From Azolla caroliniana (Eukaryota; Plantae; Polypodiophyta): 64,000 bases of DNA. Below, in pieces: positions 29,994 through 64,000 of the stretch (its first letter is position 1; each line of letters opens with the position of its first letter). The notes under the pieces are model-generated. The model saw only the letters and a program-made list of their open reading frames with translations, had not been told where the DNA came from and searched no databases. A program made the position numbers and the translations under genes. The DNA lies in assembly GCA_043228905.1 (NCBI GenBank), contig JBHGNT010000008.1, positions 16,616,001 to 16,680,000 on the forward strand. The letters are read 5' to 3'.

Positions 29994-30130
29994 TGTCGGG
30001 GTAGTTGTGGTTCGTGCGGCGAAGTCGCGGGGACTAAGGTTAAGGGGAGTTGAAGAAACTTAACTTATAATAATGCTTGTATGGTGATGATAGAATGGTT
30101 AAGGATAGTAAGAAGAAGAGTTACGAGTAA

Positions 30131-30163
<33 letters not shown>

Positions 30164-30931: not shown

Positions 30932-31403
30932 GCGGGACATTTCAGTGTCACTAAGACATTGGATCTAGTTCAACAATTCTTTTGGTGGCCTCACATGCGA
31001 CGTTTTGTCGACGACTACATTCGGACCTGTGATGGTTGCTGCCGAGCAAAGATGCCACAACACCATCCATATGGCTTGTTGGAACCCTTACCGATTCCAA
31101 GTAAGCCGTGGCAGTCTATTTGTCATGATTTTATCACAGATCTGCCGGTCTTCAAGGGGTTCGATGCTATCTTAACCATCGTCGATCGATATACGAAGAT
31201 GGCACATTTTGTGCCGTGTACTAAGGCCATCATTAGCGAGGAAACCGCCGCCCTTGTCATGCGTGAGGTATTTCGGCATCATGGCCTCCCAGACAGTAGC
31301 ATCAGTGACCAAGGACCGCAATTTGTCTCCAAATTTTGGCAACATCTCTTCAAGATGCTCAAGGTCTCTTGCAACCTCTCCTTCGGCTACCATCCTCAAA
31401 CCG

Positions 31404-39735: not shown

Positions 39736-40352
39736 CTTGTGTGCCGCATTAGGTGTTCTGTCGTTACCTCTGTCGACATAGCTCCAGTAACCATGCCCAA
39801 GTAGGTACTGGCACATCTTGTATGACGAAGATGCGTAGTTGGATCTGTCGAGCTTCTCCACCGGGAGTGAGCTAGCCATTCCTCTATCCATTTGTTTTTT
39901 TTTGTTCTTTACAAAGGTTAGGTTTTCTTCTTGCAAAAGTGAATGTTGGCTGTAGAGGTTCTCAACCCTTGCGCTCTTATACCATGTAGAAACAAGTAGC
40001 GTGCGGAAGCAATAGAAAACAGAAAACAGAAAACAGGTTTAATGGAGAGCTTAACAGTACGCGGGAGAGACACAGAGAGAGCACACAGAAACTCAATTAA
40101 AAAAATACTACTCAGTCTGTACATCGTATGTGTTCAACGAACACTTTTATACAAGTCCATACGGACTGACAGAAGTACGGTATACTTCAATGCTCACACG
40201 AGAGTCTGACACTAACTACGAGATATTAACTCCCTAGTAGACTAGCTGCTACTTGGCTTCCGGTTACTGCTTGATCCAGCTAACCGGCTCCCCAGCTCAC
40301 CGGTCATCCTTCTGGATGCCGATCCGGATCCGGTTGAGCTTGCCGCTCAACA
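39736..40352 (-). mobile_element. Truncated Copia: 5' LTR (39985-40352), PBS-iMet and gag N-terminus
   Basis: TG...CA LTR, PBS TGGTATAAGAGC (39973-39984), and MASSLPVEKLDRSNYAS.SYKM.QYLLGHGYWSYV. Confidence 0.8.
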
Positions 40353-41060
40353 ATAGCTAACTAGCTATTGCGAGTAGCTAGTTAGCTATTAAGAGTAGCT
40401 AATTAGCTATCTTAATAGCTAATTAGCTCTTGACCTAGCTAATTAGCTACTATGAGTAGCTAATTAGCTACTAAGGTAGCTAACTAGCTATTGACAGTTG
40501 CTAATTAGCTACCTTAATAGCTAATTAGCTCTTGACATAGCTAATTAGCTATTGCGAGTAGCTAATTAGCTAGTGTCAATATCTAATTAGCTACTCTAAA
40601 TAGCTAATTAGCTCCTCACATAGCTAACTAGCTATTGCCAGTAGCTAATTAGGTACCTTAATAGCTAATTAGCTCTTGACATAGCTAACTAGCTATTGCG
40701 AGTAGCTAATTAGCTACTATCAATAACTAATTAGCTAATGTGGTAGCTAGTTAGCTAATAATAGCTAACTAGCTATTGGTAACTAGCTAGTTAGCTATGG
40801 CCATCTTCTGAGGTAGCTAATTAGCTATTGCAGTAGCGAATTAGCTATTAATAGCTAAGTTTAGTATTGGCAATAGCGATTTAGCTATTACTAGTAGGTA
40901 GTTAGCTATGCTCATATTCTGAGATAGCTAATTAGCTATTGCAGTAGCTAATTAGTTGATAATATCTAAGTTAGCTATTGTCAATCGCTATTTAGCTATT
41001 ACCAATAGCTAGTGAGCTATGATCATATTTTGAGGTAGCTAATTAGCTAACTAACTAAGT
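40353..41060. repeat. Array of palindromic TAGCTAATTAGCTA units with short variable spacers
   Basis: About 30 or more units with a 20-21-bp period. Confidence 0.95.
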
Positions 41061-41156: not shown

Positions 41157-44100
41157 TGTCGCGTTGTTACGCGCGTGCGTGGGGAACGAGGCGGGACCAC
41201 CGGGGTCTCGGACCGAGAAATAGCTGAGAAGGAGGAGAGCGGAAAGGCAACGGATGCACTTGCACACGCACTGACACGGGAGCACACAGGAATCACAGTC
41301 GAACAACACAGCAAAACGAGACGACTGGAAGTCCGAGTATATGAACACACATGTATATTTATATATATATCAAGGCGGTTACAACTAACAGGCTGGCAAG
41401 GCGAACACCGACGCCTGTTCACTCACACACACACACAGAAGAGCGAGATGGAGATCTTGCCGGAAGCACACGGGTGTTCCACGGAGCAGAGTCAGCCTCC
41501 CGAAAACCTGCGCAAAATAAAAGCTATGGAGAGAGACAGAGGAGAAGGGCTCGGTCCCAGTCCGGCAACACTTTGTCCTCTCTAACGCGCGATCCCTTTT
41601 TCATTCCTCTCCCTCTCTTTTATAGCCCAAGGAGGGAGGCCGTTATCACCCGTTACATCATATTAATTCTCTGTCCTTCGGACAGAGATACAATTCGATT
41701 CTCTCCCTATTGAATGTGTGCTACCTAGGATTTCACCTCAGCCGACTTGCACCTACCTACTTACTATACAACGAAAAGTGCGCTTGCGTGTAAGGGCCGG
41801 TTTACACATGCTAAACTCAGTTTCTGCCTAGGGACGGTTTTCTTCACAACATCCGTCCCCACCTAACCGCGCATCCACCGGTATGCGCCATAATTGGGCT
41901 CTTGCTGGAGAAAACCGATCCATGCTTTACTCCTCGTCTTCCGGTTCGTCATCCGCCTCGGACCGCCCGTCGTCGCCGTCCATGCTTTCCAGATCCGGCT
42001 CGCACTCGTGTCATTTCTTGAATGCTTTGACCCTCTTCCCTGCTACCGGTATTGCCATCCTCGTATCGTCGAGCTCCGCAAGATGTTAGGTCATGTTGTC
42101 GTTGGCGCCTGTCACCACGTAAGGCCCGAACCACCTCCTTGCAAACTTCCGCGTGGCCCTGTGCTGGTTGTCGAGACTGCTGTCATACACCAGGACCCAG
42201 TCGCCTTCATCGATTTTCTTCGGTCACAGTCGGTGAGTCCGGTCAAACCTCCCTTTGTTCTTCAACCTTGCCAACCGAAGCTTCTCCGCGGCTCGTTCCA
42301 CGTCCTCCGGCCTTCGCTCGAGTTGTCGAATCCGTGCCGCTAGCAGCTCCTCCCGGCTCATCTCATCTCTCCAATCCACTATGGCCCATGAGGAGATGGT
42401 TCGCTCCGTTGGCATGATCGGCCTCTGCCCGTACATAAGCTCTGCCGGCATGAACCCGGTTACCGAACTGTGCGTAGTTCGGTCCGCCCATAATGCGTAA
42501 GGAAGGAGCCGTGGCCAATTCTCGACCTGCCCTCCGCATGCACGCACAAAAGCCTTTACGATCGGCCCATGCCCACGCTTTACTTTCCTGTTCGCCTCCG
42601 GATTGTACGCCATAGTGAGGGAGAGTTTGACCCCTAGCCGGTCGAACAACTCAACTTCCCGTGCATCCAACTCTCCCCGGTCCGCCACGATCCTCCCGAC
42701 GCACCTGTATCGACACACTACCTCTTCGATTAGGAACCGGCATACCGCCACGGTTGTCTTGTTCTGCAGTGCATGCCCTTCAACCTGGTTCGTCAAGTCT
42801 TCCCGCGCAAGCACCAGGTAACGCATATGTCCTACCCCCATCGGCATCGAAACCAAATCCACCATCCATTTGAAGTGGACGGTCGGAGGGTAGGTCGGGT
42901 GAAGCTCGTCCCGATGTCGGACTATGGAGTGCATCTGGTAGCTTTCGCAAGTTGTCACGAACCGATGCACGTCCCGGTACAGTCCGGACCACCAGTATTT
43001 CCCCTTCAACTTCTCTAACGTGGCCCACGTTCCGTGGTGTCCAGCCCAGGGACTCTCGTGGTAGGCCTCCAGCAACTCCTCCTGTTACTCCTTCTTCGCC
43101 ACCACTCGGAGCGGGATGTCATCCCTCTTCTTTGGGTGCTTCCATATGCACCCGTCCCAAAGGAAGAATCGGTACGCTTTCTTCCGGATCTGGTTGGTCT
43201 CTTCCTTTGTCCACGCCGCGTCCGGTGTCATTGTTTTCAGGAGCTCGCCGATCTGGACCCACTCCCCATCGTACTTGCTCTCGTCGAATTCGTTAAGCGC
43301 CGGAGTGCTCCCCTCTCTGGTCGTCACGTATGCCGCCTCGAAGAAATCTACGCCGATTTCCTCGTCCTCCGAAACCATGCCGTCCTCCTTTTCGAACCTC
43401 GCCCTTGAGAGCATGTCGGCCATGGCATTGTCCTTCCCGGAAATGTGTCGTATCTCCGGATTCAAGGACTTGATGTACGCTATCCACCTGAGCATCGCGC
43501 ATCCGGAAACCATGCCGAGAATCGATAGGCAGTCCGTCTCGATTATTACCTCTGTCCCGATCAGATAGTCTTTTTATCGGCCTTCACCGCCGAAACGACA
43601 CCCCAGAGTTCGCGTTTACCCTGGGCGTATCCTCGCTGTCGCTCATTGAGGACCTTCGCGCCGAACCGGATGGGGAACCTCGTGCCAACGTCATCCTCTT
43701 GGTTGATCACCCATCCGATCCCGGTCGGACTCGTGTCTATGGTTACGTAAATCGGAGTGTCTTTGCCGTAGACAGCCTTTCAGAGCGCCGGTGTCGTGGC
43801 AAGTGCTTCCTTCATCTTCCGGACTGACTCCGCATGCTCGTCTCCCCACTCGAATTTACGCCCTTTCTTCAGCAACCCATACAGCGGCTCCATGACGTGG
43901 GCGTAATGCGGGATCCAGATATGGTAGAACGCGCATGCTCCCAAGAATCTCCGAACCTCCGTAACCGAATTGTAGTCATGCTTCATCGCGGAGATGGCTT
44001 CCACCTTGGCCGGAGACGGTTTCCGTCCATATGGTCCGCATAGGTGCACGACGACCATGATCTCTTATTGCCCGAAGGCCTATTTTTCCCCAGAGAAGGT

Positions 44101-47100
44101 GAGCCTCGCGCCCTCTAGTCTCTGCAACACCTTCTCACAGTCATCAATGTGCATCGCCACGAAATTCTGACATCCGTCCGGTCCGATTGTCTCGTCCTTT
44201 TCCTCCACCGGGCATCCCCTGATCGGGATGTCGTCTAAGAATGGCATGGTGATGTCCGGGATGCAGTCCCTCAGCACTTTTTTCATTGCGTTCACCATAT
44301 GCGCCACAGAGTTCATCCCGCCTTGCGGTAGGGTACACATCCGTACTAGGCCGAGAGGGGTTCACATCGTCGTGATATCCCTGCTCTCCACGGCTAGCTG
44401 GAACTAGTCGTACCCCAAGTATAAGTCACCGACCGAATAGATTGACCTCCCAGCGAAGGCCTCCGCAACGCCTGTTGACGGTTTGCAGGTCCTGAATGAA
44501 GCCCAGTGTGTCATTCTTCTTCGGCACCGTAAACCACTGATTCGAATACAGGGCACTCGACGGTTCAAGGATGCCCATCTCCACCCTTTGCTTCAGAAGC
44601 TCCATCAACTTCGGGATGTGAGCTCTCGGCACCAGAATTGGTTTGAGATTCCACGGTACATGCGGTACTGTAAGATCACCATCGGTTCGACGATCGTCGG
44701 GTCCACGCACCTGATCTCCTCCGGCGAGAACGCGAATGCTTTCCCATGCCTTCCGAGCATTCTCCAAAACCTGTTCTCCTCCGCCGGCAGTAGAAAGCCA
44801 CCCCCACCAACCTTGTATTAGGAAACAGGTCCCTCCAGATGGGAAGTGAGAAGAAACCGGATGACGAGTACCCAGCTACCGAGGACCCGGTGAGAACCAG
44901 ATGACGAGCACCCGGCAACGGAAGACCCGGTGAGAACCGGATGTGGAGTACCCGGAAACAGAAGACCCGGTGAGAACCGGATGATGTGTGCCCAGCAAGC
45001 GCCGGATGATGCAGGCCCGGTGAGGAGTGCTCACCGGATGAAGGGACATATTCGTAAATATGTTTCTGAGAGTCCATCGGGGCTATATTTGTAAATAGTC
45101 GAAAAGTCATATTAGTATAAATATGACTTAGGGCAAACTTAGTTGTTGTTATCATTCTTGTTGGCGCAAGATTAGAGCGCAACTGTGTATAGAGAGAGAG
45201 AGAGAGAGAAAGAGACGAAGAGTTCGTATCTCTGTTGTAACCGCCGCCTGTGGCGAAGATAGTGAACAAGAGGTCGTTGCCTCTGTGTTCATCTATTGTA
45301 TTTTTGTTACATAGTGATAGTTAGCAATCAGTGGACTGCCGTGGTTTTTCCCGTGTTTGGGTTTTCCACGTAAACATCCTATGTACTCTTCTCTCCATTG
45401 TGTCGTGCATTCATTCCCGTTTTCTGTGTTTGATCCTAAGCTTGGTTGTGGCCGAGCGTTGTTCATCGGGAGCGTGTAGTTCCTGTCACCTTCAACTCTC
45501 GTAGCGTTATGTCGGTGAACCAGTGCCCTACGCCAACCGGATTCCGTAAACTCAGGTTCGACGCGACCCCTTTTTTCCGCTCCTCGCTGCCCTCCGGCAA
45601 GGGTGCCGCGACTGGCCTCACCTTCCGGTCCACAGTCTTGTACTTTGTATCCACGCGGGCCGTCCGATCCGACCCCATCCTTTCTCCGAAGTTCGCGATG
45701 ACTTCGTACATTCCCATCGATCCTACCGGAACGGTCCGGTCTTCTCTAAGGTCTTCACCGATCACCTTTCGCAACTCGCCCAAGGTGTCGTCAAAAGAGA
45801 CGCCTCCACGGCTCCACTGATCTCTTCGTCGGGGGAGAGGACTCCGCATCTCCTGAGCTGCTCCTCCGCTCGCTTCTTTTCCCGGCCGTTGACATCGGCC
45901 ATAGTACAACCTCAGTTGTCGGAGAACCAAAATTTCCTACCTATGGTACAGGTCTTCTTCTGTACTATACATTTGTGGGGTTTTTCTGGGGTGTCCGGAC
46001 TATCGCGGCCCCACGCCTTGATAGCCCTCTCTAAAAATCCCCTCGGGTTTCGCCACCGAGGGTTTCACGGTTATGCTCATGGTTTGGTCGCACCGTCAGG
46101 AACTGGACCGAGTGACGCCCGTCCTGGCTCTTGACTCTCGCGTAGGCCAAACCGTTGTCCAGCACCTTGGTTTCCATCCGTGCCGCCGTGATGTATGGTT
46201 CTCCTAGTATAACCGGATGCGAGGACGTCTCCTGCACGAAGAAGTGTTGGTCGATCTCGACATCATCGATCTTCACCCGTACATTCGGGCATGCTCCATG
46301 TAGTTCTTCCGTGGCCCGCGTCGTTGCCCGTATTTTCCAGCCGTGTTTGGTGTTGATCGGTCATTTCCCCTTTTTGTAGAAGTCCATGGACATCAAGTTG
46401 ATTTCTGAACCGTGGTCCACCAACGCCATCACCGGCTCATGGACATCCTCGACCTTAACAGGGGTCTCCGTGATCACTCTGGCCCAGTGCGGCCTCGAAT
46501 AGTGGCTCTCCGCCAACTCGTCTTCTAGCGCCATGTCCTCTATGTGCGTCGTTCACACTTCCACCGGCTTCTCCGGCTCTGGCTTTGTCGACAGCCTCTT
46601 CCTCTTTACCAAGTCTACGATGGAGTCGTGGAACTCCTTCTTGGCGATCCCGAGCACTTCCCTTAGCGACAGCTCCACTTTGCTGTCGAGGATACGTTCC
46701 TCTAGGACCTTTCGCAGGTCCGTGGTCCTTTCGATTTCCGTGCTCAACCGGTACCCGGCCTTCTTCGCTTTATCTGGTGTGCCGGTCACACCGGCCTCAT
46801 TCTGTCTTTGACTGAATCGAGTCTCGTACCGTTGCGAGGGCCCAGCCCCTCCGGTTTTACCTACTCTCTTGTCTTCCACCAGATCCTCGTAGTTCTGGCA
46901 TGCGGCCTCGACGAAGCCCGTCTTCTCTTCGATCGGGTCACTCCACCCAGTTACCTCCCGGACCCGTTTCTCCGCGCAGTCTGCTTCTTCTTTCCTTAGC
47001 TGTGTGCCGGCGAGGCCTTCTAGCATCAACGGCCAGAATCCGGCTTCGTTCTTCTTCTGGGCCTCACCACCTCTGACCCGGATCCCAGCCGACGCCGAGT

Positions 47101-49751: not shown

Positions 49752-52700
49752 TGTTGCGAATCAACGCTCCGATTCGCCTTCACCGCTCGGCCACAACCGA
49801 GAAATCGCGAATCAATGCAGCAGAAAATAGGAAACACAGAGAAAGACACGATAACACAGGAATTAACGTGGAAAACCCTATACGGGAAAAACCACGGGAG
49901 TCCTCAAACTCCAACTATCACTATGAACAGAGATGTACAATGGTGAAGCTTCAAGGCAACAACCTTGAGCTCACTGTCTTCGCCACAGGCGGCGGTAATA
50001 CACAGAGGCAACGACCTCTTCGTCTCTCTCTCTCTCTCTCTCTCTCGGCTGCTCTCTTCACTCTCTCTGAGTGGAAAAACAGAAAATGAGCAACAACTTA
50101 CAGCCATAATAAACAGTTTGCCCTAAGTCATATTTATACACATATGACTTTCGGGCTATTTACAAATATAGCCTCAAGGGCCCTTGGCAAACATATTCAC
50201 AAATATGTCCCCTGCATCCGGATCTCTCTCTCCGGGTACATTCGTCATCCAGCTCCGTAGCCGGGGTCTTCATCATCCGGCTCTGTAGCCGGGGTCTTCA
50301 TCATCCGGCTCCGTAGCCGGGGTCTTCATCATCCGTCTCCGTAGCCGGGGTCTTCATCATCCGGCTCCGTAGCCGAAACCGGGCTTGCCGTCATTCATCT
50401 CCGGACATCCCATCCGGAGGGACCGTAAATCCCAACAAACTCCCCCTTCACTTCGGCATGGGATGTCTCTCCAATCCGATCCTCTTCCGGCATGCTTCCA
50501 GCTTGTCGGGTGTAAGTACCTTGGTCAGCATATCCGACCCGTTCTCGTCCGTGTGGATCTTCGTCAGCACGAACTCCTTGTCTTCTATCCTTTCCCGGAT
50601 CCAGTGGTATCTACGCTGGATGTGCTTCGTCCGGGAGTGATAGGCCGCATTCTTCGCAAGGTGGATGGCACTCTGACTGTCGCAGTAGAGTCAGTACTCC
50701 TCCTGCTGGATTCCGAGCTCTCTAATGAAGTCCTTCATCCATATTATTTCCTTGCCGGCTTCAACAGCCGCCATGTACTCCGCCTCCGTGGTTGACAACG
50801 CAACCGTCTTCTGCAGCCTCGACTGCCACGAAACAGCTCCACCTGCATACGTCATCACATACCCTGATGTGGACCGGCTGGTATCTGCATCAGCCGACAT
50901 ATCCGAATCGGTAAAGCCGTCGAGTTCGGGCTTACCGGAGCCGAATCGGAGGCATACTTTTGTCGTGCCCTTCAGGTATCGGAGTATCCACTTGGCCGCG
51001 TTCCAGTGCTCTTTGCCGGGATTGCTCATGTACCGGCTCACCACTCCGACTGCGTATCCTATGTCCGGTCTTGTACACACCATTGCGTACATCAAACTTC
51101 CGACGGCAGAGGCATATGGTACTTTCATCATGTCCTCCTTCTCAGCCTTTGTCTTAGGGCTTTGCTTGCTGGACAACTTGCAGTTTGCCGGGAGGGTCGA
51201 TCCGACCGGTCTTGCTTCCGACATGTTGAACCGTTGAAGCACCTTTGTCACGTACTTCTCCTGTGACAGCCACAACTGCTTCTTCCTCCGGTCCCGGATG
51301 ATGTGCATCCCTAGTATTTGCCTCGCCGGACCCAAGTCCTTCATTGAGAAGGTTCGGTGAAGAGCCTTCTTCAGCATCCGTATCTTGACCTGGTCCCGTC
51401 CGACGATCAACATGTCGTCCACGTACAGGAGGAGTATTAGAAAGTCTCCTCCCTCGAACTTCTTCACAAACACGCAGTGATCGGACTGCGTTTTGTGGTA
51501 CCCTTCGTCGGTCATGAAAGAGTCGAACTTCCGGTACCATTGCCGGGGAGCCTGCTTCAGTCCGTAAAGGCTCTTCTTCAACCGGCATACCAGGTGCTCC
51601 TTCCCTTTCTTCTCGAATCCTTCCGGTTGCTGCATGTAGATCTCTTCTTCGAGGTCACCGTGAAGGAATGCCGTCTTCATGTCCATCTGTTCTACCTCGA
51701 GGTCCATGCTTGCCGCTATGCTCAGCACCGTCCGGATGGAGGTCATCTTCACTACCGGGGCAAATATCTCGTCGAAGTCGACGCCCTTCTTCTGCTGGAA
51801 CCCCTTCACCACGATCCTGGCTTTGTATCTCGGGGGGTTTCCGGCATCTCCCGGTTTCAGCTTGAACACCCACTTGTTTCGAAGTGCCCGTTTTCCTTTC
51901 GGCAACTCCACAAGTTCATATGTGTGGTTCTCATGCAGGGAATCCATCGCCTCCTGCATGGCACTTAACCACCTGCGGCTATGGGTGTCAAGCTTCGCTT
52001 CTTCAAAACTCTCCGGCTCCCCCTCGTCGGTTAGCAGCACGTGCTCTGGTTCCGGAAATCTCCGGGGGGCCCTTCTCTCTCTTAGAGGATATCTCCGTTC
52101 CGGAGCTTCGATAACCGGCTCCTCCGTTTCCTCTTCATCCGAATCCATTTCGGGATCGGGGCCGGTTCCGGTATCAGTTTCATCTTCTTCGGCCGGTTCT
52201 GTTTCTTCACCGTCTTCGGCCGGGTCTTCGAGTGTTAACCGGTCCCTTGCCGGTCGGGACTGCTCCTCGTAGAGTTTATACTCACCGGTCGACTTGGAGC
52301 TCTTCATCTTCTTCTCCGACTCCCAGTCGGCGAGTGTCTTGTTCTCCATGAAGATGATATCACGACTCCGGAATATCTTCTTGTCGACCGGGTCCCATAC
52401 TCGGTAGCCGAACTCGTCATCGCCGTAACCGAGGAATATGCATGGCCGGGTCTTTGGATCTAGCTTTCCTCTCCGGTCCTTTGCTACATGCACATATGCG
52501 AGACACCCGAACACCTTCAGATGCCGATAGGATACTTCCCTACCGGTCCACACTCTTTGCGGCGTGTCTCCGTCCAAACGTACTGAGGGTGATCTGTTTA
52601 TCACGTATGTCGCCGTCGACATTGCCTCAGCCCAAAACCCCTTGGGTAATTTCGCATGCGCCAGCATACTCCGGACCCTCTCCATTATGGTCCGGTTCAT

Positions 52701-54793
52701 CCTCTCGGCCAGCCCGTTCAGTTCCGGCGTCTTCGGCACGGTAAACTCGAGCCGGATTCCCATCGAACGGCAATACTCCTCAAATTGCCCTCGGTATTCT
52801 CCTCCGTTATCCGCTCGTATCGCTTTCAGCTTCTTGCCAGATTCCCTTTCCACTCTCGCGTGGAGTTCTTTGAAGACGCACAACACTTGGTCCTTTGTCT
52901 TCAACGGTGCCGTCCACAGCTTCCGGCTGTGGTCATCTATAAATGTTACGAAGTACTGGGCTCCGCCATGTGACTTCGTTTCTACCTGACACACGTCAGT
53001 GTGCACCAACTCCAATGGTGCGCTACGTCTCGTCGGTGGCCTTGAGTGGAAGGAGGTCCGGTTTTGCTTACTGGCCAGACAGTCGGTACACTTCCCCAAG
53101 TGTACGTGCTTTACCGGTATCAGGTTGTCTTCGGCAAGCCTCTTCATCCCCTTCTCGCTCATGTGGCACAGTCTCTTGTGCCACAGCTCACCGGCAGTGT
53201 CGGCTGCCACGTTCAACTTTTCCGGACACAACCGGGCATTCATAAGGTACAGTGTGTTGATCTTCCGGGCCCGAGCTACTATCAGGCTCCCTTTGCTGAA
53301 CTTCATGACACCGTTCCGGATGCTACCCGTGTAGCCTTCATCGTCTAGCCTCCCGGCCGAAATCAGGTTCAATCGAACCTCCGGAACGTGTCGTACATCT
53401 TTCAACAGCATCTTGCATCCGGTCGAGGTTGTCAACCACACGTCTCCTATGCCGGCAATCCGGCACGTACCTTCGTTTCCCATCCGGACATAGCCAAGCT
53501 CACCGGCTGTGTAGGATGAGAAGTATCTTCTCTCCGGGGTCAGGTGGAACGATGCTCCGGAATCGACCACCCAGGTCGTCTCACCGCCGGCAATGTTTAG
53601 TTCACCTTCTTCGGTGATGAGCATGATTTCTTCCTCACTTGCCGCGAGTGCCGTCGTTCCTTTCCGGTCCTGCCCTCGCCGATCCGGACCTCTCCGGCCC
53701 GTGGCTCCCTGGTATGCACCGTTTCTCTCCGGTGACTTCTTCGAATCGGTGTCGTCGGCTCCGTTGTCCTTTCGGTAATGCCGACAATTCTTCCGGAAGT
53801 GCCCCGGCTTCCCACAGTGGAAGCATGTGGGTCTTCCTCTTGACTGCGACCGGGTCCCCGACTTCTCCCGTCTTTGCGGACTCCGGTTCCATTGTCTTCC
53901 CCGTTCCGATTCGGTAAGCAGCGCCTTCGAGTCGGAGGCCGGTTCTTTATCTCTCCGACGCGCTTCTTCATTCAAAATACTTGTCTTTACCGTTTGTAGG
54001 GACAAGTTATCTTCCGTGCAGGAGGTGCTGAGAGTCACCACCAAGTTCTCCCAGCTTTCCGGCAATGTACACATCAAGATGATGGCTTGCATTGCATCCT
54101 CCAACGGGAACTTGATCGCCGCAAGCTGGTTCACGAATCCCATGAACGTGCTTACGTGTTCCACCATACTCTCGCCGTCCCGGTACTTGAGGTTCACTAT
54201 CTTCCTCATCAGGGAGGTCCGGTTCAACGCATTCTTCCTCTCGTAGAGGCCCGACAGCTTCCGCCACATCTCGTATGCGTTGGTGTCGTTCGCCACATGC
54301 TGTAGAACGCTCACGTCGACGTATTGCCGAATGGTTGCAACGGCTTTCCGGTTCAGAAGCCTCCATTCCGACTCAAGTACCCCCTTCGGTATTTCCGACC
54401 TGTCAATCGGTTCGTACAGGTCCCGAACAATCAGAAGATCCTCCATCTTGATCTTCCAGTCGGCGTAGTTCTGCGCATTCAGCACCATCATCCCCGGCTG
54501 CCCGCTGCTGCCGCCTTCCATTTTCTGCACTGCCGTCGCTTTGATACCACTTTGTTGCGAATCAACGCTCCGATTCGCCTTCACCGCTCGGCCACAACCG
54601 AGAAATCGCGAATCAATGCAGCAGAAAATAGGAAACACAGAGAAAGACACGATAACACAGGAATTAACGTGGAAAACCCTATACGGGAAAAACCACGGGA
54701 GTCCTCAAACTCCAACTATCACTATGAACAGAGATGTACAATGGTGAAGCTTCAAGGCAACAACCTTGAGCTCACTGTCTTCGCCACAGGCGG
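49752..54793 (-). mobile_element. Near-intact Ty1/Copia element (3' LTR 49752-50437; 5' LTR from 54553, interrupted at 54793)
   Basis: PBS-iMet ~54538-54549, PPT 50438-50448, 28-bp repeats in the LTR. The shared LTR portion appears identical. Confidence 0.95.
50448..54521 (-). CDS. Copia gag-pol polyprotein with one premature stop at 50691-50693
   Basis: MEGGSSG...; CFHCGKPGHFRKNC, VVDSGAS, integrase, LYVDDML. After the TGA the frame continues LYCDSQSAIHLAKN...HPMPK*. Confidence 0.9.
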
Positions 54794-55294
54794 TGTTAAT
54801 CGGCTAATTACTAACTATTACCGATACAGAAGAGTGAACATCGCTACTCAACGTTCTAACAAGGAATTGTGTTTTACGAACGGAATTATGCTATATTAAT
54901 CGGTAATTACCGTGATCGTTACTTAGTTATAAATTAGGAAGCTTGCACTTAAGATCATAGACAACAGAGAAACACAGAATCCGTACAAGATATTCCTAAC
55001 TTAAACTTATATTACTAAATAAAACGACCTTTCTTACAATGCCTTTGGTTCCCTTTTATAGGTATACCGAAGGTCTTTTCTCATCAAGAACTATTCCTAC
55101 TCCCTAACAAGATTTACAAAATTATCTAACTAACTTAGTTCCCTTCGTTTTACTGCTGAGTCATTGATCCGAACAGTCGATCCGAACCGACTCTGTTTTC
55201 GACGCTTTCCCACCTGTTCGGTAAAACTGACTGTCCGGGTCCGGGTAACACTTGGCACGACCGTGGGCCAGGACCTTGTCCGGCGAACCCACGC

Positions 55295-57943
55295 CTATTC
55301 CTGTAGCTCTTCATCCGAATCGTTTAGAATATCAAAAATCGAAGGCTCATCTGGCCTTGGATGTATTCCACCTATATCTTCCTCTTCATCTTCGTCTGTG
55401 TCACAGTCCTCCTTCGGAGCAGGTTGTGATTCGGTTGGCTGCTCTGGTTCACTTCTTCCGGAAACTTGAATACCAGGAGTCTTGCTGGTTCTTTCGGCTT
55501 CGATTTTATCCAACTGGACGGAAGTGCCTATATCATTTTTGTCGAATTCTTGCATAATACGTTGAATTTCTTCTCTGTAAAATGCCGCAATTTCATCCAT
55601 ATCTTTCATGATATCCTCTTGGATATTGTCAATATCCTTTTGTGCCATTTTAAAAAAACCTGCACCTTGTACCTGACGGTTATTTTTGTCGGCACGCAAT
55701 ATCTGTAATTCCGCCGCTTGTGCTGTCCATAACTTCCATCCTTGCGCAAGGGATTCATCGATCAGTTTCTTTGCTAGGTTTCGATGTTTACCTATGATGT
55801 GCTGCACTTTGTCCCTAGTGATGCTTGCGACGTATTGGGCGGTTTGCAACTCTTTCTGTAAATCCGTAATAGTGGTTCGGTTTTCACTTTCAGCTCGCAT
55901 TAATTTGGATTCGACTACATATATATCCAGCCGTCTTTGTTCCGCTATCTTCCGAATTTCGTCCAGTTGTTGTTCGAATGCCGATTTCTCTCTACTCCAT
56001 TCCTCCTGCTGTTCCGTCATTCTTCTGTTGACTTCTTCAAGACTCTGCTGTTTTTCTGTCAATTGACTTTCCTGTGACACTATATACCTTTCGAATTCTT
56101 CAATTTGTTCGGTATATGTATGATTGGCCGTCTTAGCTTCTTCTAGATTTTTCTGTAATTCGTTTATTACTTGATTTTTTTCTTCGAGAGCTTTGTATTG
56201 ACCATTCTGAATGGTTTCTATTTGTTTCTCTAATTCTGTAGTTCTAAATACTGCATTGTTGGCCCTTGTTGTTTCTGCTTGTCGTGCTTTCTCAGCATCC
56301 TCTAATTTCTGTTGCCATTCTGACTCTGACACCATAAGCCGTGCCTGTGTTTCCCATTTGTTTAGACTTTCCTTTAGTTCTTTATTTTCCGCTTGTATGT
56401 TACGAAACTGATGCTTCAGCACCTCCGCCGATGCTGATACACTTTTGTATCTTTCAGCCATATCACTGGCTGCTTTGCGTGCCGTTTCATATTCTTTATG
56501 AATTTCGACCAGTGCTTCATGTAATGGTGGCATTTCAATAGCCTCCCCTCTATGCTGTGCACTTCTTTTCCGGCCTATTTTCTCTATCTCTGCTTTTTCT
56601 TGAGGTTCCAACACTCCTCGTAAGGCTTTCTGTATCATTATTCGGTCATTATGTTCTTGAGCCAGCCGTTCTGATACTTCTGTCAGTCTTTTAGCCAACC
56701 ATTCAACCAGTTCGTATGAAGTTCCGAACTGCAAAATGGCAGCTAATTCATGTGCTGCTGGTGGGATATCCAAGTATCCATGTGCTTCCCGAATGGCTAC
56801 TTTTGAAGATTGTCCTTGGTGAGGTTGTGTCGAAATGCTCTCATCCCCTGGTTTTAGTACTTCTGTTACCACAGGCGTATTCGACTTTTCATTTGTGCGT
56901 TGCCTTTTCGGTGCTGATCCCTCACTGTTTTCTGGTTGGAATTGCCGATTAGCCTTTTGTTTAATCCTTGTTCGTTGTGTCCTCTTCTCTGCTTGTTGTC
57001 GATTTTCTGTCAGCTGTTGCTTGTTTCTCAAATTGTCAACTGTTTCTGGTTGTCTGTTTTCGGAATTCTCTGGTCTAGGTGGTTCCGACTGAGACATATT
57101 TGTTTGTATATTATCGGCATGTGCCGATTCTTCTTCTATCCATTCTTCATGTACTAGCTGTCGGTGTCTTCGTGGTGCTTGTATTATCGGTGGTCTTCTT
57201 GACTGGACAGGAGTTTCCGATTCTTGAATCGGAAACAATACTGATAACCAACGACCAAAAATTTGCTTCATCGGTTTTCCTGTTTTTACCCCTTGTAGCT
57301 GCTCTCTCAGAGCTTCCCCCGACAATAGTGGCCAGTTGAAATCCTCTTTTTCATATGCGGCTATAATAAACCCAGCCCTTTTTTTCGGCATACAATAAAA
57401 ACGAGGACTGACAAATCCCACCTCTAGTAAAAACCTCGCCACTTCATGAAAAAACTCATCCCGACCTCCATAAGTCTGATATGCTTTTGCCGAGGGTGAG
57501 TATTCCCCGAAATACGATTGGAGTGCTTCTGATGAAGGTTTTTTAACTGCCTCAAAACCTCCTCTTGGCATCTGTAATGCATTTCGTATTTTCTTTGTGG
57601 TGATTTTGGTGATGTCTATTTGTTGTACCAATTCTTCCGCCTGCGGATGAGGTTCCGCTTCTGCTACTTTGATGAAACCTTGTAAGTTTCTCTCATGAAG
57701 CCACAATCGCAGTTCTTCAGATACAGGAATCGGCATGACTTCTGTGTTTCCTTGTTCTGAATCACTTGTCGATGATAGTTGCAGATCTGCACAGTTTCTG
57801 TAGCGATGAAAATCAAAAAAACAGAGTTTGGGCGAACTAGGGCACGAAGGAGGCTCAGACTGTTTCGATATCTGCACTCGTTTCTGTTGTTTTGGCGATA
57901 CAGACGATACAGAAATATGCTTTAAAGATATTAATTTATGCAT
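55295..57943 (-). CDS. Extra ORF of the Gypsy element: unknown N-terminal domain, disordered linker, long coiled coil and acidic tail
   Basis: 882-aa open ORF between pol and the 3' LTR with an E/K/Q-rich C-terminal half. No obvious signal peptide or TM helix. Alternative ATG at 57736. Confidence 0.85.
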   Translation of the reverse strand: MHKLISLKHISVSSVSPKQQKRVQISKQSEPPSCPSSPKLCFFDFHRYRNCADLQLSSTSDSEQGNTEVMPIPVSEELRLWLHERNLQGFIKVAEAEPHPQAEELVQQIDITKITTKKIRNALQMPRGGFEAVKKPSSEALQSYFGEYSPSAKAYQTYGGRDEFFHEVARFLLEVGFVSPRFYCMPKKRAGFIIAAYEKEDFNWPLLSGEALREQLQGVKTGKPMKQIFGRWLSVLFPIQESETPVQSRRPPIIQAPRRHRQLVHEEWIEEESAHADNIQTNMSQSEPPRPENSENRQPETVDNLRNKQQLTENRQQAEKRTQRTRIKQKANRQFQPENSEGSAPKRQRTNEKSNTPVVTEVLKPGDESISTQPHQGQSSKVAIREAHGYLDIPPAAHELAAILQFGTSYELVEWLAKRLTEVSERLAQEHNDRIMIQKALRGVLEPQEKAEIEKIGRKRSAQHRGEAIEMPPLHEALVEIHKEYETARKAASDMAERYKSVSASAEVLKHQFRNIQAENKELKESLNKWETQARLMVSESEWQQKLEDAEKARQAETTRANNAVFRTTELEKQIETIQNGQYKALEEKNQVINELQKNLEEAKTANHTYTEQIEEFERYIVSQESQLTEKQQSLEEVNRRMTEQQEEWSREKSAFEQQLDEIRKIAEQRRLDIYVVESKLMRAESENRTTITDLQKELQTAQYVASITRDKVQHIIGKHRNLAKKLIDESLAQGWKLWTAQAAELQILRADKNNRQVQGAGFFKMAQKDIDNIQEDIMKDMDEIAAFYREEIQRIMQEFDKNDIGTSVQLDKIEAERTSKTPGIQVSGRSEPEQPTESQPAPKEDCDTDEDEEEDIGGIHPRPDEPSIFDILNDSDEELQE

Positions 57944-58143
57944 GATGACTTAAAGAATAGTAATTGCTATTAATGTAGGAATTAATTAGTATTCACTCTA
58001 CGTGTAGTGGTTGTACTTGTTACTAATAATCATGCAATTCCTCTTTCTATTTATAGTCGATTCATACTGTTATGGCAAGATTGTATTTCTGCATTTGACA
58101 AGAACTATTGAGCGAGTTAGTTAGTTTTTTTTTTTTTTTTTTT

Positions 58144-61100
58144 TTACTCTTCCGTTTGAATAAACGGATTTACCGGCATATCTCCCAAATACGGTTTAAG
58201 CCGAAATCCATTTACCCATTTTGGTAAAACCTCTCCGGTTAATGATCCCAGTTGGTACGTACCATTTTTACTATTAATTATCCATACTGGACCTGTCCAT
58301 CTATACCGGAGTTTCCCAGGCATAAGTCCCATTCTCGTCTGGAATACCAATACCGGTTTCCCAATTTCGAATTGCTCTTCCGATTTCCTTCGATGTCGAT
58401 TTACGAATGCCTTGATTTGTCTCTGCTTGTGTTCTAGTGCTGACATTGATTGAATCCGTTCTTCTTCTAATACTAATAAAGCCTCTTTGCGTATCTGCTC
58501 CGATTCTATTTCATTTAACTTATTCGTTGCTTGAATACGAAGTGTCGGAATTTGAAATTCGATTGGCATAACGGCTTCGAGTCCGAATGCCATTCGGAAA
58601 GGTGTTGATTTAATGGATGTTTTGTACGAAGTACGATATGCCCATAATGCACTATTTAACTTTTGATCCCAATCAGTACGATTTTCATTCACTATCTTCT
58701 TTAAAATTGTTTGAATTGTTTTATTTGTCGATTCTGCCAATCCATTAGCTTGGGGATAGTAAGGCGTACTTTTCTTATGAACTACGGCATAGTAATTGGT
58801 TAATTCGTTAATTAACTTGTTAATAAAATGAGTGCCTTGATCGCTTACCAATTCTATTGGGCAACCGAATCGACACCATATATACTCATACAGGAATTTT
58901 GCTGTGGATGCTGCCGTATTGTCCCTGAGAGCTTTTGCTTCAACCCATTTTGTGCAATAGTCAGTCGCAATTATGATATATCGATTACCGGTTCTTGCAG
59001 CTGCTGGTTTGAATGGGCCAACAAAATCTAAGCCCCATTTCTGAAATGGCTCAAGAGGTAAAACCGGTTGAAAAGGCATTCGATCCTTTTCGGTTGGTTG
59101 CCCCATTCTTTGACACAAATCGCATTTCTTACAGTATTCGTTAGCATCTTTCATCACCGTAGGCCACCATAACCCGCTATTCCATATTTTTCTGGCTGTT
59201 GCTTCTCCTGCGTAATGACCGCCAGCAATTCCACAATGTGACTCTGTTAATATGGCTGATTTTTCAAATTTTCGTACTGCCCTTCGCCATATTCCATCCG
59301 CTCCTTTATGATACAACATGTCATTAAATAAACAAAAATTCCGACTTCGTACTGCAATTCTTTTTCTTTCATCTGTCGACATGTGTTCGGCCGGAATTCC
59401 TGTTGATAGAAATATCGTCATTTCGGAAATCCATTCGTCCTCTTTTTCCTCATTCACTTCATGTGCTTTTACTGCCTCCACCCGAAATAACTGAGTATCT
59501 GGAAAATCATCTTTAACCCCAACCGCTTCTTCTCCAGACTCAAGCCGACTGAGATAGTCAGCAATCGCGTGCTGTGCTCCTGGTCGATGTATAATGTCAA
59601 ATTCAAACTCTTGAAGCAATAACGTCCATCGGGCTAACTTGCCTGTCAATTCTTGTTTGGAAACTAGATACAGTAAAGCCGAATGATCCACATGAAATGT
59701 AAATTTCTTACCCAAAAGGTAATGTCGAAATTTGTTCACACTATATATCATTCCCAAAGCTTCTCTTTCGGTTGTTGAATAGTTTCTTTCGGCCGACGAA
59801 AGTTTCCTACTGGCATAGTATACCGGCCTATACCAGTTTGGTTCGGATAATTGCATTAAAGCACTGCCTATGGCAATGTCCGACGCATCGACGAAAACAT
59901 GAAATGGTTTGTTCCAGTCCGGTGGTTGAACTACCGGAACCTTCGTCAGCATCTTCTTGAGACATTCGTACGCATCTTGTTCTATACTTGTCCATATAAA
60001 AGGAACTTTGTGTACTGCTGTGTGTAACGGAATAGCAATGTCTGCTAGATATCTCATCATTCTACTGTGCCACCGAATTTGACCCAAAAATCTACTTAGA
60101 GCTTTAGCATTTGTTGGTGGTGTTGCCTCAATGATTGCTTTAACTGTATCTGGGTCCACTGCAATCCCTTCTTGACTGACAATATGCCCAAGTAATGTAC
60201 CACTCATTACTCCGAATGCGCATTTGGCTGGATTTAAACTCAGACGCCCTTTTCGACATTTTTCTAAACATAGCCGTAAATGCTCAAAATGATCAGCTTT
60301 CCGACTATATACTGCAAAATCATCTAAAAACACCTGCATGAAAGCTGGAATATATTCCCCGAATATTTCCTGTATTACCCGCTGAAATGTAGCTGGAGCT
60401 GTTTTTAAACCGAACATCATGACTACTGCCACAAAGACACCCCATTCTGTGACGAAAGCTGTCTTTTCCTGATCTTCCGGATTCATCCGTACTTGATTGT
60501 ACCCACTGAACCCATCCAAGAAACTATAAATTTCATGTCCCGCTACTGCATCTAATATCCCATCTGTGAATGGCAACGGAAACGCATCCGTAATTGTCGC
60601 TGCATTCAATTTTCTGTAATCCACACATACACGAATTTTCCCATTCTTTTTCGGGACTACTACTATCGGACTCAGCCATGTTGATTTTTTGACGGGTCGA
60701 ATAAATCCTACTTTTAAGAGTTTATCGATTTCTTCTTTTACTTTGATAGCATAATTCGGATTCAACCTGTACCTGCGTTGTTGTACTGGCTTTGCATCTT
60801 TATGCAAATTGATTTGATGTTGACAAAAAGCGGGATCCAGACCTTTCATATCGTCAAAGGACCATGCAAAAACATCTTTATATTGTAATAGTAATGTTGT
60901 TAATGTCCGTTTGTCATTTACCGTCAAATCTCTAGCAATCAAGATTGTTTTTCTTTCAGCATCCTCTACTCCTGCCAAATCAATCTCCTCCAATGCTGCG
61001 GCTTGCACTCTCTGAGATACCTGCAATTCCTTATCTGTAGCTTCTTGTTGCATTCGTATTTCTTTTATTGTTTGCTCATCGATTGGCACTTCTTCGTGTG

Positions 61101-63636
61101 AGTCTACATATGGTGTTAATGCTTGCAAAATATCTACCTCAAATAGAGGGATGATTTTTTGATTATCATCAAAATACTGACTTTCTTCTTCCTCGTCCAA
61201 TCCTTCCATCATATTAACTGCTTCTGCATATACAGGTAAACTCTGTTTGCTTGTTGTCACTTTGTTGTGCGTCGGAATCCTGACCTTGTTTTTTCCTTTT
61301 CTAAATGTTAGCACATTTTGTTTCCAATTTTGTTTAATATTAGCTGTCTTTAACCATGGTCTCCCCAATAACAAGGGGTATGCTCCCTGTGTTTCTAACT
61401 GCAAAATTACTGCTGAAATCTGAAAACTGTGTCCCCCGATTATTACATCCAGTTGTCGAAGCAAACCAATCGGTCGTACCGTACTTGTATCTGCCATTCG
61501 TAACCAAAACGGACATGCTTCCCATTCCGTGATTCCCAGTTTTTCACATGTAGTTTTGTTAATCACATTAACACCCGAGCCTCCATCTATAATCACATTT
61601 CCGATTTCTTGCCCGTAAAGTATTACCTTAATAGACGGATTCTGTTCATCCATGATCGAAGGGTTATTACTTGGCTGATTGTAGTGTACTGCTATTTGTT
61701 CGGAACCTTTATGTGCAATTAATGCTGCCACTTTTTCTGTAAACCTTGGTACTAACTTAAGTAAGCCCTTAAGTGGTAATGACACTTGACAATCAGCCAA
61801 CAGTTTCCAAGTTTCTTCCTGTTCCTTATTCTCCAATGATTGTTGTACAGCGATGTCCTGGTCAATGTTATTGTCTTGTAACATTCGATTCACATTACTT
61901 TGATTTGCTTCATCCACCCATTCCTTTGCTGCCTTCCGAACTTCTTCCTGAATTTCCCACTCTGATTGTTTGCTTTTGCTGCGTGTCGTTACTTGCTGAA
62001 CTTCCGGTATTACCATATTAACTGCTGGACCCTTTCCTTTAACCGGACATTGATTAGCATAATGGCCTAGTTGTCGACAAATGTAACAAGTGGGCACAAA
62101 TGTTGCACTGGTCTCTCCATGTGCAAATTGCCCGTTATTAAATTGCTGCTCTTCATTACCATTCGGGTTTTGTTGGTATTGACGTGTAGCTTTTGGTTTG
62201 TAAAATCTCTTGTTTTTATACCTATTCGGCCTAAATTGTTCAGTATTATCATTTGGTTGTGCTATATTGTGTGGTATCCCGAACTCCTGATTTGGCGGAA
62301 AATTACTCTGTTGAAACATTTGATTATTTTGTGGAACAGTTTGAGTATTATGTTGAAAAGTCATATTACCCGGTTGAAATGCCGGATTTGGTTGAAATGT
62401 AGAATTCGGTTGCACATTCGGACAGTTCTGTTGAAACCCTTGAAATGGTGGATTACCTTGTTGGAAACTTTGATTATTTTGTTGAAAATATTGATTCGGA
62501 TTCTGTACGAATGGTGGGTTGGATTGAGCAAAACCTGGTTGAAATGCTTGAGTCACTTGAGTGGGTTGCATATTTTGTTGTGAAAAGATCTGATTTGGCT
62601 GTAGAACCGGGTTCTGTTGTACATTTTGCTGATTTTGTGAAAAATTATTATTTTGATAACCATTGAACAGATTAGTGTTATTTTGGTAACCATTGTCAGC
62701 AAAAATTTGTCGTACTGACGCCGTAGTCTTATTAAGCAGATTATATTCACATTGTTCTACGGAATGTAATTTTGAATGACATATTGTACAATGTGTTCTT
62801 AACGTACAGTCAATTGCCGAATGCCCCGTATTTAAACAAGTGGTGCATTGAACTGCTTGTCGAAATTGTAACTCCTCCATTGTTGGTAATGTACGGTGTA
62901 ATGCCGACATGTCCATACTCTGAACATTGACCGGTGGTCGACCCATTTCTATTGCTTTATCAATGACTTGTTCGATAGTCTGATTTCTAAAATCGAACAC
63001 TTTCAATGTCGTCCTTAATGGTTCTTTTACAGCTTCTAGAAAGACTTCTTTTAATTCCTTATCCGGAATCGGTCTTGAAATCTGAAGCTGTAAGTTCTGA
63101 AATCGTATCACAAACTGAGATACTGTTTCATTTTTTTCTTGATATAACGCATAAAATTGCGCAATCAAATCCTTCTGCGGAATTTGTTGATGAAATAATT
63201 GTAAAAATTTACTAGTTAATACTTCGAAGGATGGAAATCCTTGAAGACCGTTCTGCGCAAACCAATTAGCGGAATATCCGTCTAATGATAAGACAAACTC
63301 AGCGATGTTTGACTTATCTTTGGCATCTGCCGACAATCGCTGAGCTCCATGGTTAATCTCCCATGTCGTTAAGAAATCCCTAACATGTGCTTCCGCATCT
63401 GTTCCTTCCCGGAACTTAGAATAAGTATAAGGCATATCGTCCCAAATGTCGTAAAACGATACCTCTTCCGTCTGTTTTTCGTCTGAAGGTAATTGATCGG
63501 ATAAGTCAGGAAGTTTCGACCACTTTGTGCTTGATTCCGGCTGTTCTTGCGTAATGAACGCTTGCTGCACTACCTTCGTAACTGACCTTGTACGAGGGCG
63601 CTTACAACTGACCGGTGCCTCCTCTTCATACGACAT
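58144..63636 (-). CDS. Gypsy gag-pol polyprotein (Gag, 3 zinc knuckles, PR, RT, RNase H, integrase)
   Basis: 1830-aa ORF with CTTCLNTGHSAIDC, CTICHSKLHSVEQC, CYICRQLGHYANQC, IIDGGS, FLDDF, VDASD, HCGIAGGH..CDLC and DDE motifs. Confidence 0.97.
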   Translation of the reverse strand: MSYEEEAPVSCKRPRTRSVTKVVQQAFITQEQPESSTKWSKLPDLSDQLPSDEKQTEEVSFYDIWDDMPYTYSKFREGTDAEAHVRDFLTTWEINHGAQRLSADAKDKSNIAEFVLSLDGYSANWFAQNGLQGFPSFEVLTSKFLQLFHQQIPQKDLIAQFYALYQEKNETVSQFVIRFQNLQLQISRPIPDKELKEVFLEAVKEPLRTTLKVFDFRNQTIEQVIDKAIEMGRPPVNVQSMDMSALHRTLPTMEELQFRQAVQCTTCLNTGHSAIDCTLRTHCTICHSKLHSVEQCEYNLLNKTTASVRQIFADNGYQNNTNLFNGYQNNNFSQNQQNVQQNPVLQPNQIFSQQNMQPTQVTQAFQPGFAQSNPPFVQNPNQYFQQNNQSFQQGNPPFQGFQQNCPNVQPNSTFQPNPAFQPGNMTFQHNTQTVPQNNQMFQQSNFPPNQEFGIPHNIAQPNDNTEQFRPNRYKNKRFYKPKATRQYQQNPNGNEEQQFNNGQFAHGETSATFVPTCYICRQLGHYANQCPVKGKGPAVNMVIPEVQQVTTRSKSKQSEWEIQEEVRKAAKEWVDEANQSNVNRMLQDNNIDQDIAVQQSLENKEQEETWKLLADCQVSLPLKGLLKLVPRFTEKVAALIAHKGSEQIAVHYNQPSNNPSIMDEQNPSIKVILYGQEIGNVIIDGGSGVNVINKTTCEKLGITEWEACPFWLRMADTSTVRPIGLLRQLDVIIGGHSFQISAVILQLETQGAYPLLLGRPWLKTANIKQNWKQNVLTFRKGKNKVRIPTHNKVTTSKQSLPVYAEAVNMMEGLDEEEESQYFDDNQKIIPLFEVDILQALTPYVDSHEEVPIDEQTIKEIRMQQEATDKELQVSQRVQAAALEEIDLAGVEDAERKTILIARDLTVNDKRTLTTLLLQYKDVFAWSFDDMKGLDPAFCQHQINLHKDAKPVQQRRYRLNPNYAIKVKEEIDKLLKVGFIRPVKKSTWLSPIVVVPKKNGKIRVCVDYRKLNAATITDAFPLPFTDGILDAVAGHEIYSFLDGFSGYNQVRMNPEDQEKTAFVTEWGVFVAVVMMFGLKTAPATFQRVIQEIFGEYIPAFMQVFLDDFAVYSRKADHFEHLRLCLEKCRKGRLSLNPAKCAFGVMSGTLLGHIVSQEGIAVDPDTVKAIIEATPPTNAKALSRFLGQIRWHSRMMRYLADIAIPLHTAVHKVPFIWTSIEQDAYECLKKMLTKVPVVQPPDWNKPFHVFVDASDIAIGSALMQLSEPNWYRPVYYASRKLSSAERNYSTTEREALGMIYSVNKFRHYLLGKKFTFHVDHSALLYLVSKQELTGKLARWTLLLQEFEFDIIHRPGAQHAIADYLSRLESGEEAVGVKDDFPDTQLFRVEAVKAHEVNEEKEDEWISEMTIFLSTGIPAEHMSTDERKRIAVRSRNFCLFNDMLYHKGADGIWRRAVRKFEKSAILTESHCGIAGGHYAGEATARKIWNSGLWWPTVMKDANEYCKKCDLCQRMGQPTEKDRMPFQPVLPLEPFQKWGLDFVGPFKPAAARTGNRYIIIATDYCTKWVEAKALRDNTAASTAKFLYEYIWCRFGCPIELVSDQGTHFINKLINELTNYYAVVHKKSTPYYPQANGLAESTNKTIQTILKKIVNENRTDWDQKLNSALWAYRTSYKTSIKSTPFRMAFGLEAVMPIEFQIPTLRIQATNKLNEIESEQIRKEALLVLEEERIQSMSALEHKQRQIKAFVNRHRRKSEEQFEIGKPVLVFQTRMGLMPGKLRYRWTGPVWIINSKNGTYQLGSLTGEVLPKWVNGFRLKPYLGDMPVNPFIQTEE

Positions 63637-64000
63637 CCATTCGAATTGTTCTCTGCTTAATTGCAGATGTAACCGGGCGTGCCAAAATTCTTCTGTGTTA
63701 ATCGGCTAATTACTAACTATTACCGATACAGAAGAGTGAACGTCGCTACTCAACGTTCTAACAAGGAATTGTGTTTTACGAACGGAATTATGCTATATTA
63801 ATCGGTAATTACCGTGATCGTTACTTAGTTATAAATTAGGAAGCTTGCACTTAAGATCATAGACAATAGAGAAACACAGAATCCGTACAAGATATTCCTA
63901 ACTTAAACTTATATTACTAAATAAAACGACCTTTCTTACAATGCCTTCGGTTCCCTTTTATAGGTATACCGAAGGTCTTTTCTCATCAAGAACTATTCCT

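Follow-up and report, generated by a model that had tools for sequence, protein, structure and literature searches.

A tRNA-Arg-like site in place of the polypurine tract in a Ty3/Gypsy retrotransposon of Azolla caroliniana and in closely related elements

Introduction

Plus-strand priming from a polypurine tract (PPT) is treated as general for retroviruses and LTR retrotransposons in the reviews consulted (PMC7879559, PMC5371799, PMC12789967, PMC13191261). The window analysed here, a stretch of 64,000 nucleotides from Azolla caroliniana (assembly GCA_043228905.1, contig JBHGNT010000008.1, positions 16,616,001 to 16,680,000), holds a Ty3/Gypsy element for which an earlier note, made from the letters alone, reported no such tract. 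An inverted tRNA-Arg-like sequence was described in its place, and tRNA priming of both strands was suggested. Is the PPT really replaced in this element, and what would then start the plus strand?

A young and intact Ty3/Gypsy element

The element that carries the motif is a Ty3/Gypsy retrotransposon on the minus strand, extending from beyond position 64000 down to 54794. It is young and intact. Its main features are:

54790..54793, no strand: one side of the target site, GCGG, within the 5' LTR of an older Copia element
54794..55250, minus strand: 3' LTR, 457 bp, TGTTA...TAACA, with TG...CA ends
55295..57943, minus strand: ORF2, 882 aa, an extra 3' ORF on the element's sense strand
58144..63636, minus strand: ORF1, with Gag (zinc knuckle), RT, RNase H and integrase in Ty3/Gypsy order (Pfam)
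63696..64000, minus strand: 5' LTR, cut by the window end, 305 bp inside

The LTR pair is 99.0% identical, with 3 mismatches across the comparable 305 of 457 bp, and both ORFs are open (1830 aa for ORF1), in agreement with the intactness claimed in the earlier note. The protease within ORF1 was placed by eye. No chromodomain family was matched by the element's proteins in Pfam. On the sense strand, 21 A residues at 58125-58145 overlap the stop codon of pol. L002 is rich in A near the corresponding point, and no A run follows pol in L005 or L024.

ORF2 contains a long low-complexity stretch that is probably coiled-coil. Its single Pfam match falls under the cut-off of that family. Since no hydrophobic membrane-type stretch was found in ORF2, its assignment as an env was dropped. 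The ORF is nevertheless kept across the clade, with 24-37% identity (about 30%) to ORF2 of the related loci L005, L006 and L024. In Atlas, its N-terminal part weakly resembles clusters of DUF1985 and of plant mobile domains (0.80-0.81, below 0.9), resemblances that we regard as leads only.

The visible side of the target site fits the pattern NCGN; the second side lies beyond the window. The Copia element that hosts the insertion has LTRs that are 99% alike over 248 bp. Because the Gypsy element sits inside the Copia 5' LTR, it is younger than the Copia insertion.

A tRNA-Arg-like motif occupies the PPT position

The 44 nt ahead of the 3' LTR (55251-55294) contain no purine tract. The sequence is as quoted in the earlier note. 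Its last 20 nt ahead of the 3' LTR contain no purine run longer than 3, a maximum shared by all four families in which we found the motif. The nearest sense-strand run of at least 10 purines starts at 55387, within ORF2. The segment between the 3' LTR and ORF2, whose stop lies 2 nt upstream of the motif, is organized as follows:

55251..55252, minus strand: gap of 2 nt separating the CCA end of the tRNA copy from the LTR, the same in all four families
55253..55262, minus strand: tRNA copy part 3, acceptor 3' strand and CCA (tRNA 67-76), 9/10 matches to a bacterial stand-in tRNA-Arg
55263..55269, minus strand: tRNA copy part 2, T stem 3' strand (tRNA 59-65), 6/7 matches to the stand-in
55270..55282, minus strand: insert of 13 nt with a 4-bp stem and a 3-nt loop, between tRNA positions 58 and 59
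55283..55292, minus strand: tRNA copy part 1, T stem 5' strand and T loop (tRNA 49-58), 9/10 matches to the stand-in

The motif is thus a sense copy of the last 28 nt of tRNA-Arg, with a 13-nt hairpin inserted after A58 and tRNA position 66 missing. Resemblance to other families stops at about 55291-55293.

A bacterial stand-in was chosen because neither the window nor 45 of the 73 related loci described below gave a tRNA in ARAGORN. The stand-in is the tRNA-Arg(UCU) of a bacterial genome (L085), not the tRNA of the host, and was picked for its UCU anticodon and its match to the PBS of the window. It comes from a tRNA pattern search with 32 genome and 3 viral matches; 12 of these were given to ARAGORN, which called 5 tRNA-Arg, 2 of them UCU. 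The window motif matches the stand-in at 24 of 27 positions, L005 at 26, L024 at 25 and L007 at 23 (its 1-nt insertion left ungapped), figures that are partly circular, since the motif and a PBS had served to build the pattern that retrieved the stand-in. The comparison shows that parts 1 to 3 read like a genuine tRNA-Arg end, as had been proposed for a tRNA 3' half with an inserted hairpin; the identity of the host tRNA is a separate matter.

As a chance control, a three-part tRNA pattern of 27 positions, with at most 6 mismatches and with inserts of 8-19 nt allowed, was run over both strands of the 64 kb. It matched one place only, the motif itself, with 3 mismatches. A tRNA gene or a tRNA-derived SINE or TRIM was rejected, as there is no whole cloverleaf and no covariance-model match: ARAGORN called 0 tRNA genes in the window, and no tRNA family was among 5 Rfam matches at E<=10. 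Elsewhere in our collection, three viral contigs (L106-L108, positions 301-328) carry a tRNA-type 3' end with CCA that ARAGORN does not call a tRNA.

The motif is shared by close relatives with unrelated LTRs

A metagenome scan, covering about a ninth of the collection, yielded 73 loci. Searching these and the window (600,785 bases, both strands) with the motif pattern gave four matches: the window, L005, L007 and L024. The proteins of the three relatives are 75% (L005), 78% (L007) and 72% (L024) identical to those of the window element. In each of the three close relatives that reach the junction, the motif lies 2 nt from TGTT and there is no PPT; in the other close loci, mostly short contigs, no junction was located. 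The arrangement of LTR, 2 nt and tRNA-like site noted earlier therefore holds in 4/4 families. Decay of a former PPT is rejected, in line with the note, which had argued this from the open ORFs and the LTR identity. A purine or G tract is present at the junction in all six of the more distant loci in which it was located, weakest in L071. These junctions were found through direct repeats (L031, L065, L071) or by eye (L025, L027, L030).

The LTRs of the four carriers have no mutual blastn similarity at E<0.01, and the pol DNA of the relatives is 69-72% identical to that of the window. A TATA-like box in the 3' LTR of the window, 191 nt from the LTR 5' end, is in sense orientation. Such sense boxes occur in 3 of the 4 carrier LTRs and are compatible with an ordinary sense genomic RNA; an antisense match is also found in 3 of 4. 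L005, L007 and L024 are short-read contigs with one LTR between the ORF2 end and the PBS, so the link between 3' site and PBS could be an assembly join.

Contigs from sequencing runs were aligned to both element ends and came from 4 of 22 listed runs, with four organism labels and with depths that do not equal copy number. Many contigs from the four runs match 55240-55293 and then diverge on both sides, indicating that the motif also occurs in families that differ in LTR and internal sequence. The viral contigs gave no relatives and no motif match, and the prokaryote genomes no motif match.

A branch of its own among non-chromovirus elements

Judged by its proteins, the element is a non-chromovirus Ty3/Gypsy element that is atypical in the PPT cis element. 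A search with RT-RH-INT found relatives at 99, 88, 75, 60, 57 and 56% identity, followed by proteins of liverworts (42-48%) and Athila-like proteins of angiosperms (near 40%); the best named matches include elements of both these kinds. In a quick IQ-TREE search on 62 of 122 proteins, the element fell into a supported group apart from the angiosperm rows, which makes a non-seed plant the likely host. In a FastTree analysis of 42 rows, three of them under half filled, a branch supported at 100 has all four motif carriers on one side. The element branch is separate from the angiosperm Athila-like rows in both trees, these rows being labelled by host name and PBS type, without a reference set.

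The element has two LTRs (the 5' one partial), Gag followed by RT-RNase H-integrase, and a tRNA PBS, all marks of the Metaviridae, and lacks the tract of about ten A/G residues that forms the PPT ahead of the 3' LTR. With canonical Metaviridae and retroviruses it shares LTRs, PBS, RT/RNase H, integrase and a primer end adjoining U3. The plus-strand site of those elements consists of about ten A/G residues, whereas here it is a tRNA copy.

Athila, Tat/Ogre/Retand, Phygy and Selgy likewise combine Gag-RT-RH-INT with no chromodomain match and a non-Met tRNA PBS. PMC6317226 gives PBS types of Trp for Phygy, Ala for Selgy and Asp/Asn for Athila, and lists the NCGN target pattern for Phygy and no extra ORF for Phygy or Selgy. 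Compared with these lineages, the element differs in having no PPT, an Arg-type PBS and a well-supported branch of its own apart from the angiosperm Athila-like rows; from Phygy and Selgy it also differs in its sense 3' extra ORF. Athila (OTA) was rejected for the separate tree branch and for the Arg-type PBS in place of tRNA-Asp/Asn, and Phygy for the Arg-type PBS in place of tRNA-Trp and for the 882-aa ORF2. Tat/Ogre/Retand was rejected because the RNase H of the element matches only RT-type families, on one stretch, and Pfam found no additional archaeal-type RNase H domain, the mark of that group, in the element.

Sequence is nearly fixed in the tRNA part, structure in the insert

In the alignment of the four families, all 44 cells of an 11-pair hairpin are paired, compared with 30-46% in slid-alignment controls. 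Three of its pairs are changed on both sides: pairs 14-22 and 15-21 of the insert and the pair at tRNA 58/60. The families whose insert stem is changed on both sides are L024 and L007. The covariation score was reached by 4 of 500 shuffles, although the sample is small at four sequences and relatedness by itself can outscore shuffles. By contrast with the insert, the four outer-stem pairs, which are tRNA sequence, are invariant in the four families. The equivalents of T54 and C56 are also fixed in 4/4; they are unpaired in the hairpin of the motif and paired in the tRNA-bound fold. An insert that is free in sequence and fixed in structure, next to tRNA positions that are fixed in sequence, is the pattern predicted by pairing in trans to an unchanging tRNA. 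The check for conservation and covariation proposed in the earlier note gave nearly fixed tRNA positions and compensatory changes in the insert hairpin.

Among the variants listed for the sequencing-run copies, those within the motif fall at 55258, 55260, 55269, 55275 and 55282. The third loop base of the insert, 55275, is variant at 18-69% of depth, and a T allele at 55260 reaches 8-49%. The change at 55282, a CpG site, is found at 9-40% of depth; it keeps a G-U pair in the sense RNA and breaks the pair in the minus-strand DNA. Two of the three tail substitutions at tRNA 68-69 (L024 and the 55260 T allele) would form G-T wobbles with the tRNA on the minus strand. L007 has CTA where the others have CCA. 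The window allele is the weakest, with only 7 contiguous 3' pairs and a mismatch at tRNA 69, and its paired 58/60 change keeps its own stem and loses the tRNA pair.

It could be argued that an inverted tRNA or PBS copy was acquired once by a copying accident and carried passively since. On its left the resemblance ends where the T stem begins, as might be expected if the primer had been copied by read-through. However, the motif has been kept while the LTRs ceased to align and ORF2 fell to about 30% identity, and it shows compensatory changes in elements that are still amplifying. Passive carriage is barely credible on these grounds; an accident may explain the origin of the motif, not its upkeep. 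We conclude that the replacement of the PPT by a tRNA-like site is real, selected and lineage-wide.

A host tRNA is the probable plus-strand primer

Of the models considered, the best-fitting one, which we judge probable, is that a host tRNA-Arg would anneal to the complement of the site on minus-strand cDNA and prime the plus strand. In predicted cofolds of the minus-strand site with the 3' 28 nt of the tRNA, the two form a three-way junction with the insert extruded in all four families. The net energy is -22 to -35 kcal/mol, compared with about -7.6 +/- 3 for shuffles, none of which (0/300) is as low; RNA:RNA parameters were used for the RNA:DNA hybrid. Against the whole folded tRNA, binding still amounts to -14 to -27 kcal/mol, with RNA:RNA parameters as a proxy.

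The proposed sequence of events begins as usual, with tRNA-Arg priming the minus strand at the 13-nt PBS. After strand transfer, RT would copy U3 and the motif, and RNase H would strip the RNA. Nucleocapsid would then open the acceptor and T arms of a second, packaged tRNA, allowing tRNA 59-76 to pair with one side of the DNA hairpin and 49-57 with the other, around a three-way junction at position 58. m1A blocks normal base pairing, and its presence at 58 would prevent pairing there anyway. That position carries m1A in retroviral primer tRNAs (PMC13191261). RT would extend the CCA end across the 2-nt gap into U3, and RNase H would finally remove the tRNA, leaving the 2-nt end for integrase.

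The element RNA might instead supply the primer in cis: the sense strand would fold a T-arm-like hairpin with a 10-nt CCA tail, survive RNase H, be cut after CCA and prime the plus strand. The motif sits exactly where a PPT would, and the 11-pair hairpin, with its three covarying pairs, is possible in 4/4 families. The 58/60 change of the window favours its own stem over tRNA pairing, and the frequent 55282 change keeps its G-U pair only on the sense strand. Yet an RNA that remains on its own cDNA needs no tRNA sequence, whereas the outer stem and the T54 and C56 equivalents are invariant and the inner stem is free. The folding predictions point the same way. The motif does not fold better than shuffles (z -1.4 to +0.9, 16 folds), nor does its 111-nt context (z +1.34, not significant). 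Under RNA parameters, the minimum-energy fold of the sense strand lacks the 4-bp stem with its 3-nt loop in all four families, whereas under DNA parameters this stem and loop form on the minus strand in 3/4. We consider a cis primer unlikely, though it is the main rival and the weak window allele, the 58/60 change, the 55282 variant and the CTA of L007 keep it alive.

In a different explanation, the true primer is a displaced or internal purine tract upstream of the motif, which itself has another role. In some families, the sense strand of the loose contig ends past 55293 looks rich in purines (agreement only 0.5-0.7), and the window has its A run after the pol stop. A displaced PPT fails in L005, where the sequence ahead of the motif is T-rich; that locus and L024 also have no A run after pol, and purines elsewhere can be explained by the acidic end of ORF2. 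Moreover, about 45 extra cDNA bases would have to be trimmed, whereas the 2-nt gap is constant. We find this explanation very improbable.

Returning to tRNA priming in trans, its wider form is that a whole clade of plant Ty3/Gypsy elements does without PPT priming, with host tRNAs starting both strands, the second through a DNA three-way junction around the modified A58, and with L007 using two different tRNAs. On balance, we lean towards this reading.

The primer-binding site and the 5' end

The region downstream of the 5' LTR contains the following features:

63652..63667, minus strand: small hairpin directly 3' of the PBS, a predicted fold
63672..63684, minus strand: PBS, 13 contiguous pairs to the 3' end of the bacterial stand-in tRNA-Arg(UCU)
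63685..63695, minus strand: spacer of 11 nt between 5' LTR and PBS, with letters that vary among copies

The PBS shows only 1-4% transitions among the sequencing-run copies, and no insertion or deletion is among the variants listed for the spacer. The earlier note had called the 11-nt distance unusual. This did not hold up: the gaps measure 11, 5, 4 and 7 nt in the four carriers and 3-11 nt in PPT-bearing, Athila-like relatives, so the distance is ordinary and no part of the anomaly. The spacers of the window, L005, L007, L024, L025, L027, L030, L031 and L071 all end in T residues.

Hairpins of other sequence are predicted at about the same place in L005 (5534-5549) and L024 (about 4219-4234), and L007 has only a weak fold. 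The hairpin 3' of the PBS could possibly serve as a packaging or dimer signal. In L007, a single LTR connects a PBS of another tRNA type (about 925-934) with a 3' site of the Arg(UCU) type. If this contig is faithful, two tRNAs are used within one family.

The sense-strand tail of the motif could also pair with the PBS, and thereby prime the minus strand with no need of a host tRNA, circularise the RNA to allow strand transfer or shield the PBS. Tail-PBS duplexes are predicted in the window (-19.6 kcal/mol), L005 (-26.5 kcal/mol, with 11 perfect pairs) and L024 (-20.9 kcal/mol), and pairing or circularisation, as suggested earlier, is possible in these three. As the essential role of the motif it is weakened on two counts. 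L007, a contig that could join two subfamilies at the LTR, keeps the motif while its PBS suits a different tRNA and the predicted duplex amounts to only -8.0 kcal/mol; and nothing near the PBS can pair with part 1, the T-arm half. The two common alleles at 55260 are each mismatched to the PBS, and the plus strand would be left without a primer. Such pairing is very unlikely to be what maintains the site.

Relation to known systems

The closest parallels differ in strand or position. According to PMC5371799, the bipartite PBS of Ty1 and Ty3 pairs the acceptor and T arms of the tRNA with split sites, the Ty3 part lying at the genome 3' end. These sites are complementary to the tRNA on the genomic RNA and serve minus-strand priming. 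The 3' site described here, unlike those of Ty1 and Ty3, is identical to the tRNA on the RNA and therefore complementary to it only on minus-strand DNA. In Helenus TRIMs, a tRNA-like sequence inside the LTR is likely a promoter, and PBS and PPT are kept (PMC10886601). The tRNA-like site of the present element is outside the LTR, in the place of the PPT, and belongs to an autonomous element.

Two nematode Bel/Pao elements may also be comparable, in another element family and host kingdom than the Gypsy element. In Tas, the position ahead of the 3' LTR reportedly holds a sequence related to tRNA-Arg and no purine tract, and Cer7 is reported to encode a tRNA-like primer. If these descriptions are right, they could be a partial precedent and lower the novelty of the arrangement. 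The ICTV profile of the Belpaoviridae gives a PPT for the family and names no exception (PMC8742986). A literature search by title and start of abstract, with thin coverage of subscription and older papers, found no PPT-less element with an inverted tRNA site, and word searches in PMC554778, PMC6911290 and PMC3118150 gave nothing on such elements.

A successful, still-amplifying clade without a PPT shows that plus-strand priming is open to rewiring. Should the primer prove to be a tRNA bound to DNA, the clade would offer a natural system for studying how RT and RNase H choose and remove primers, and a second target for control by tRNA fragments. Since each end of these elements resembles an LTR followed by a PBS, annotation pipelines that expect a PPT, or use it for orientation, could miss or flip them.

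Other elements and repeats in the window

Broken and more distant Gypsy-type pol remnants lie at 1301-5106, 29126-31399 and 42020-44478, with 22-42% identity to ORF1; a pattern search found no tRNA-like motif in these three. Copia-type elements at 49752-54800 and 31404-36504 are related to each other and 76-85% alike in stretches. The Gypsy element is inserted in the 5' LTR of the former, whose LTR also contains a GA microsatellite. At 40334-40764, palindromic units of 20-21 nt are arrayed as direct and inverted repeats.
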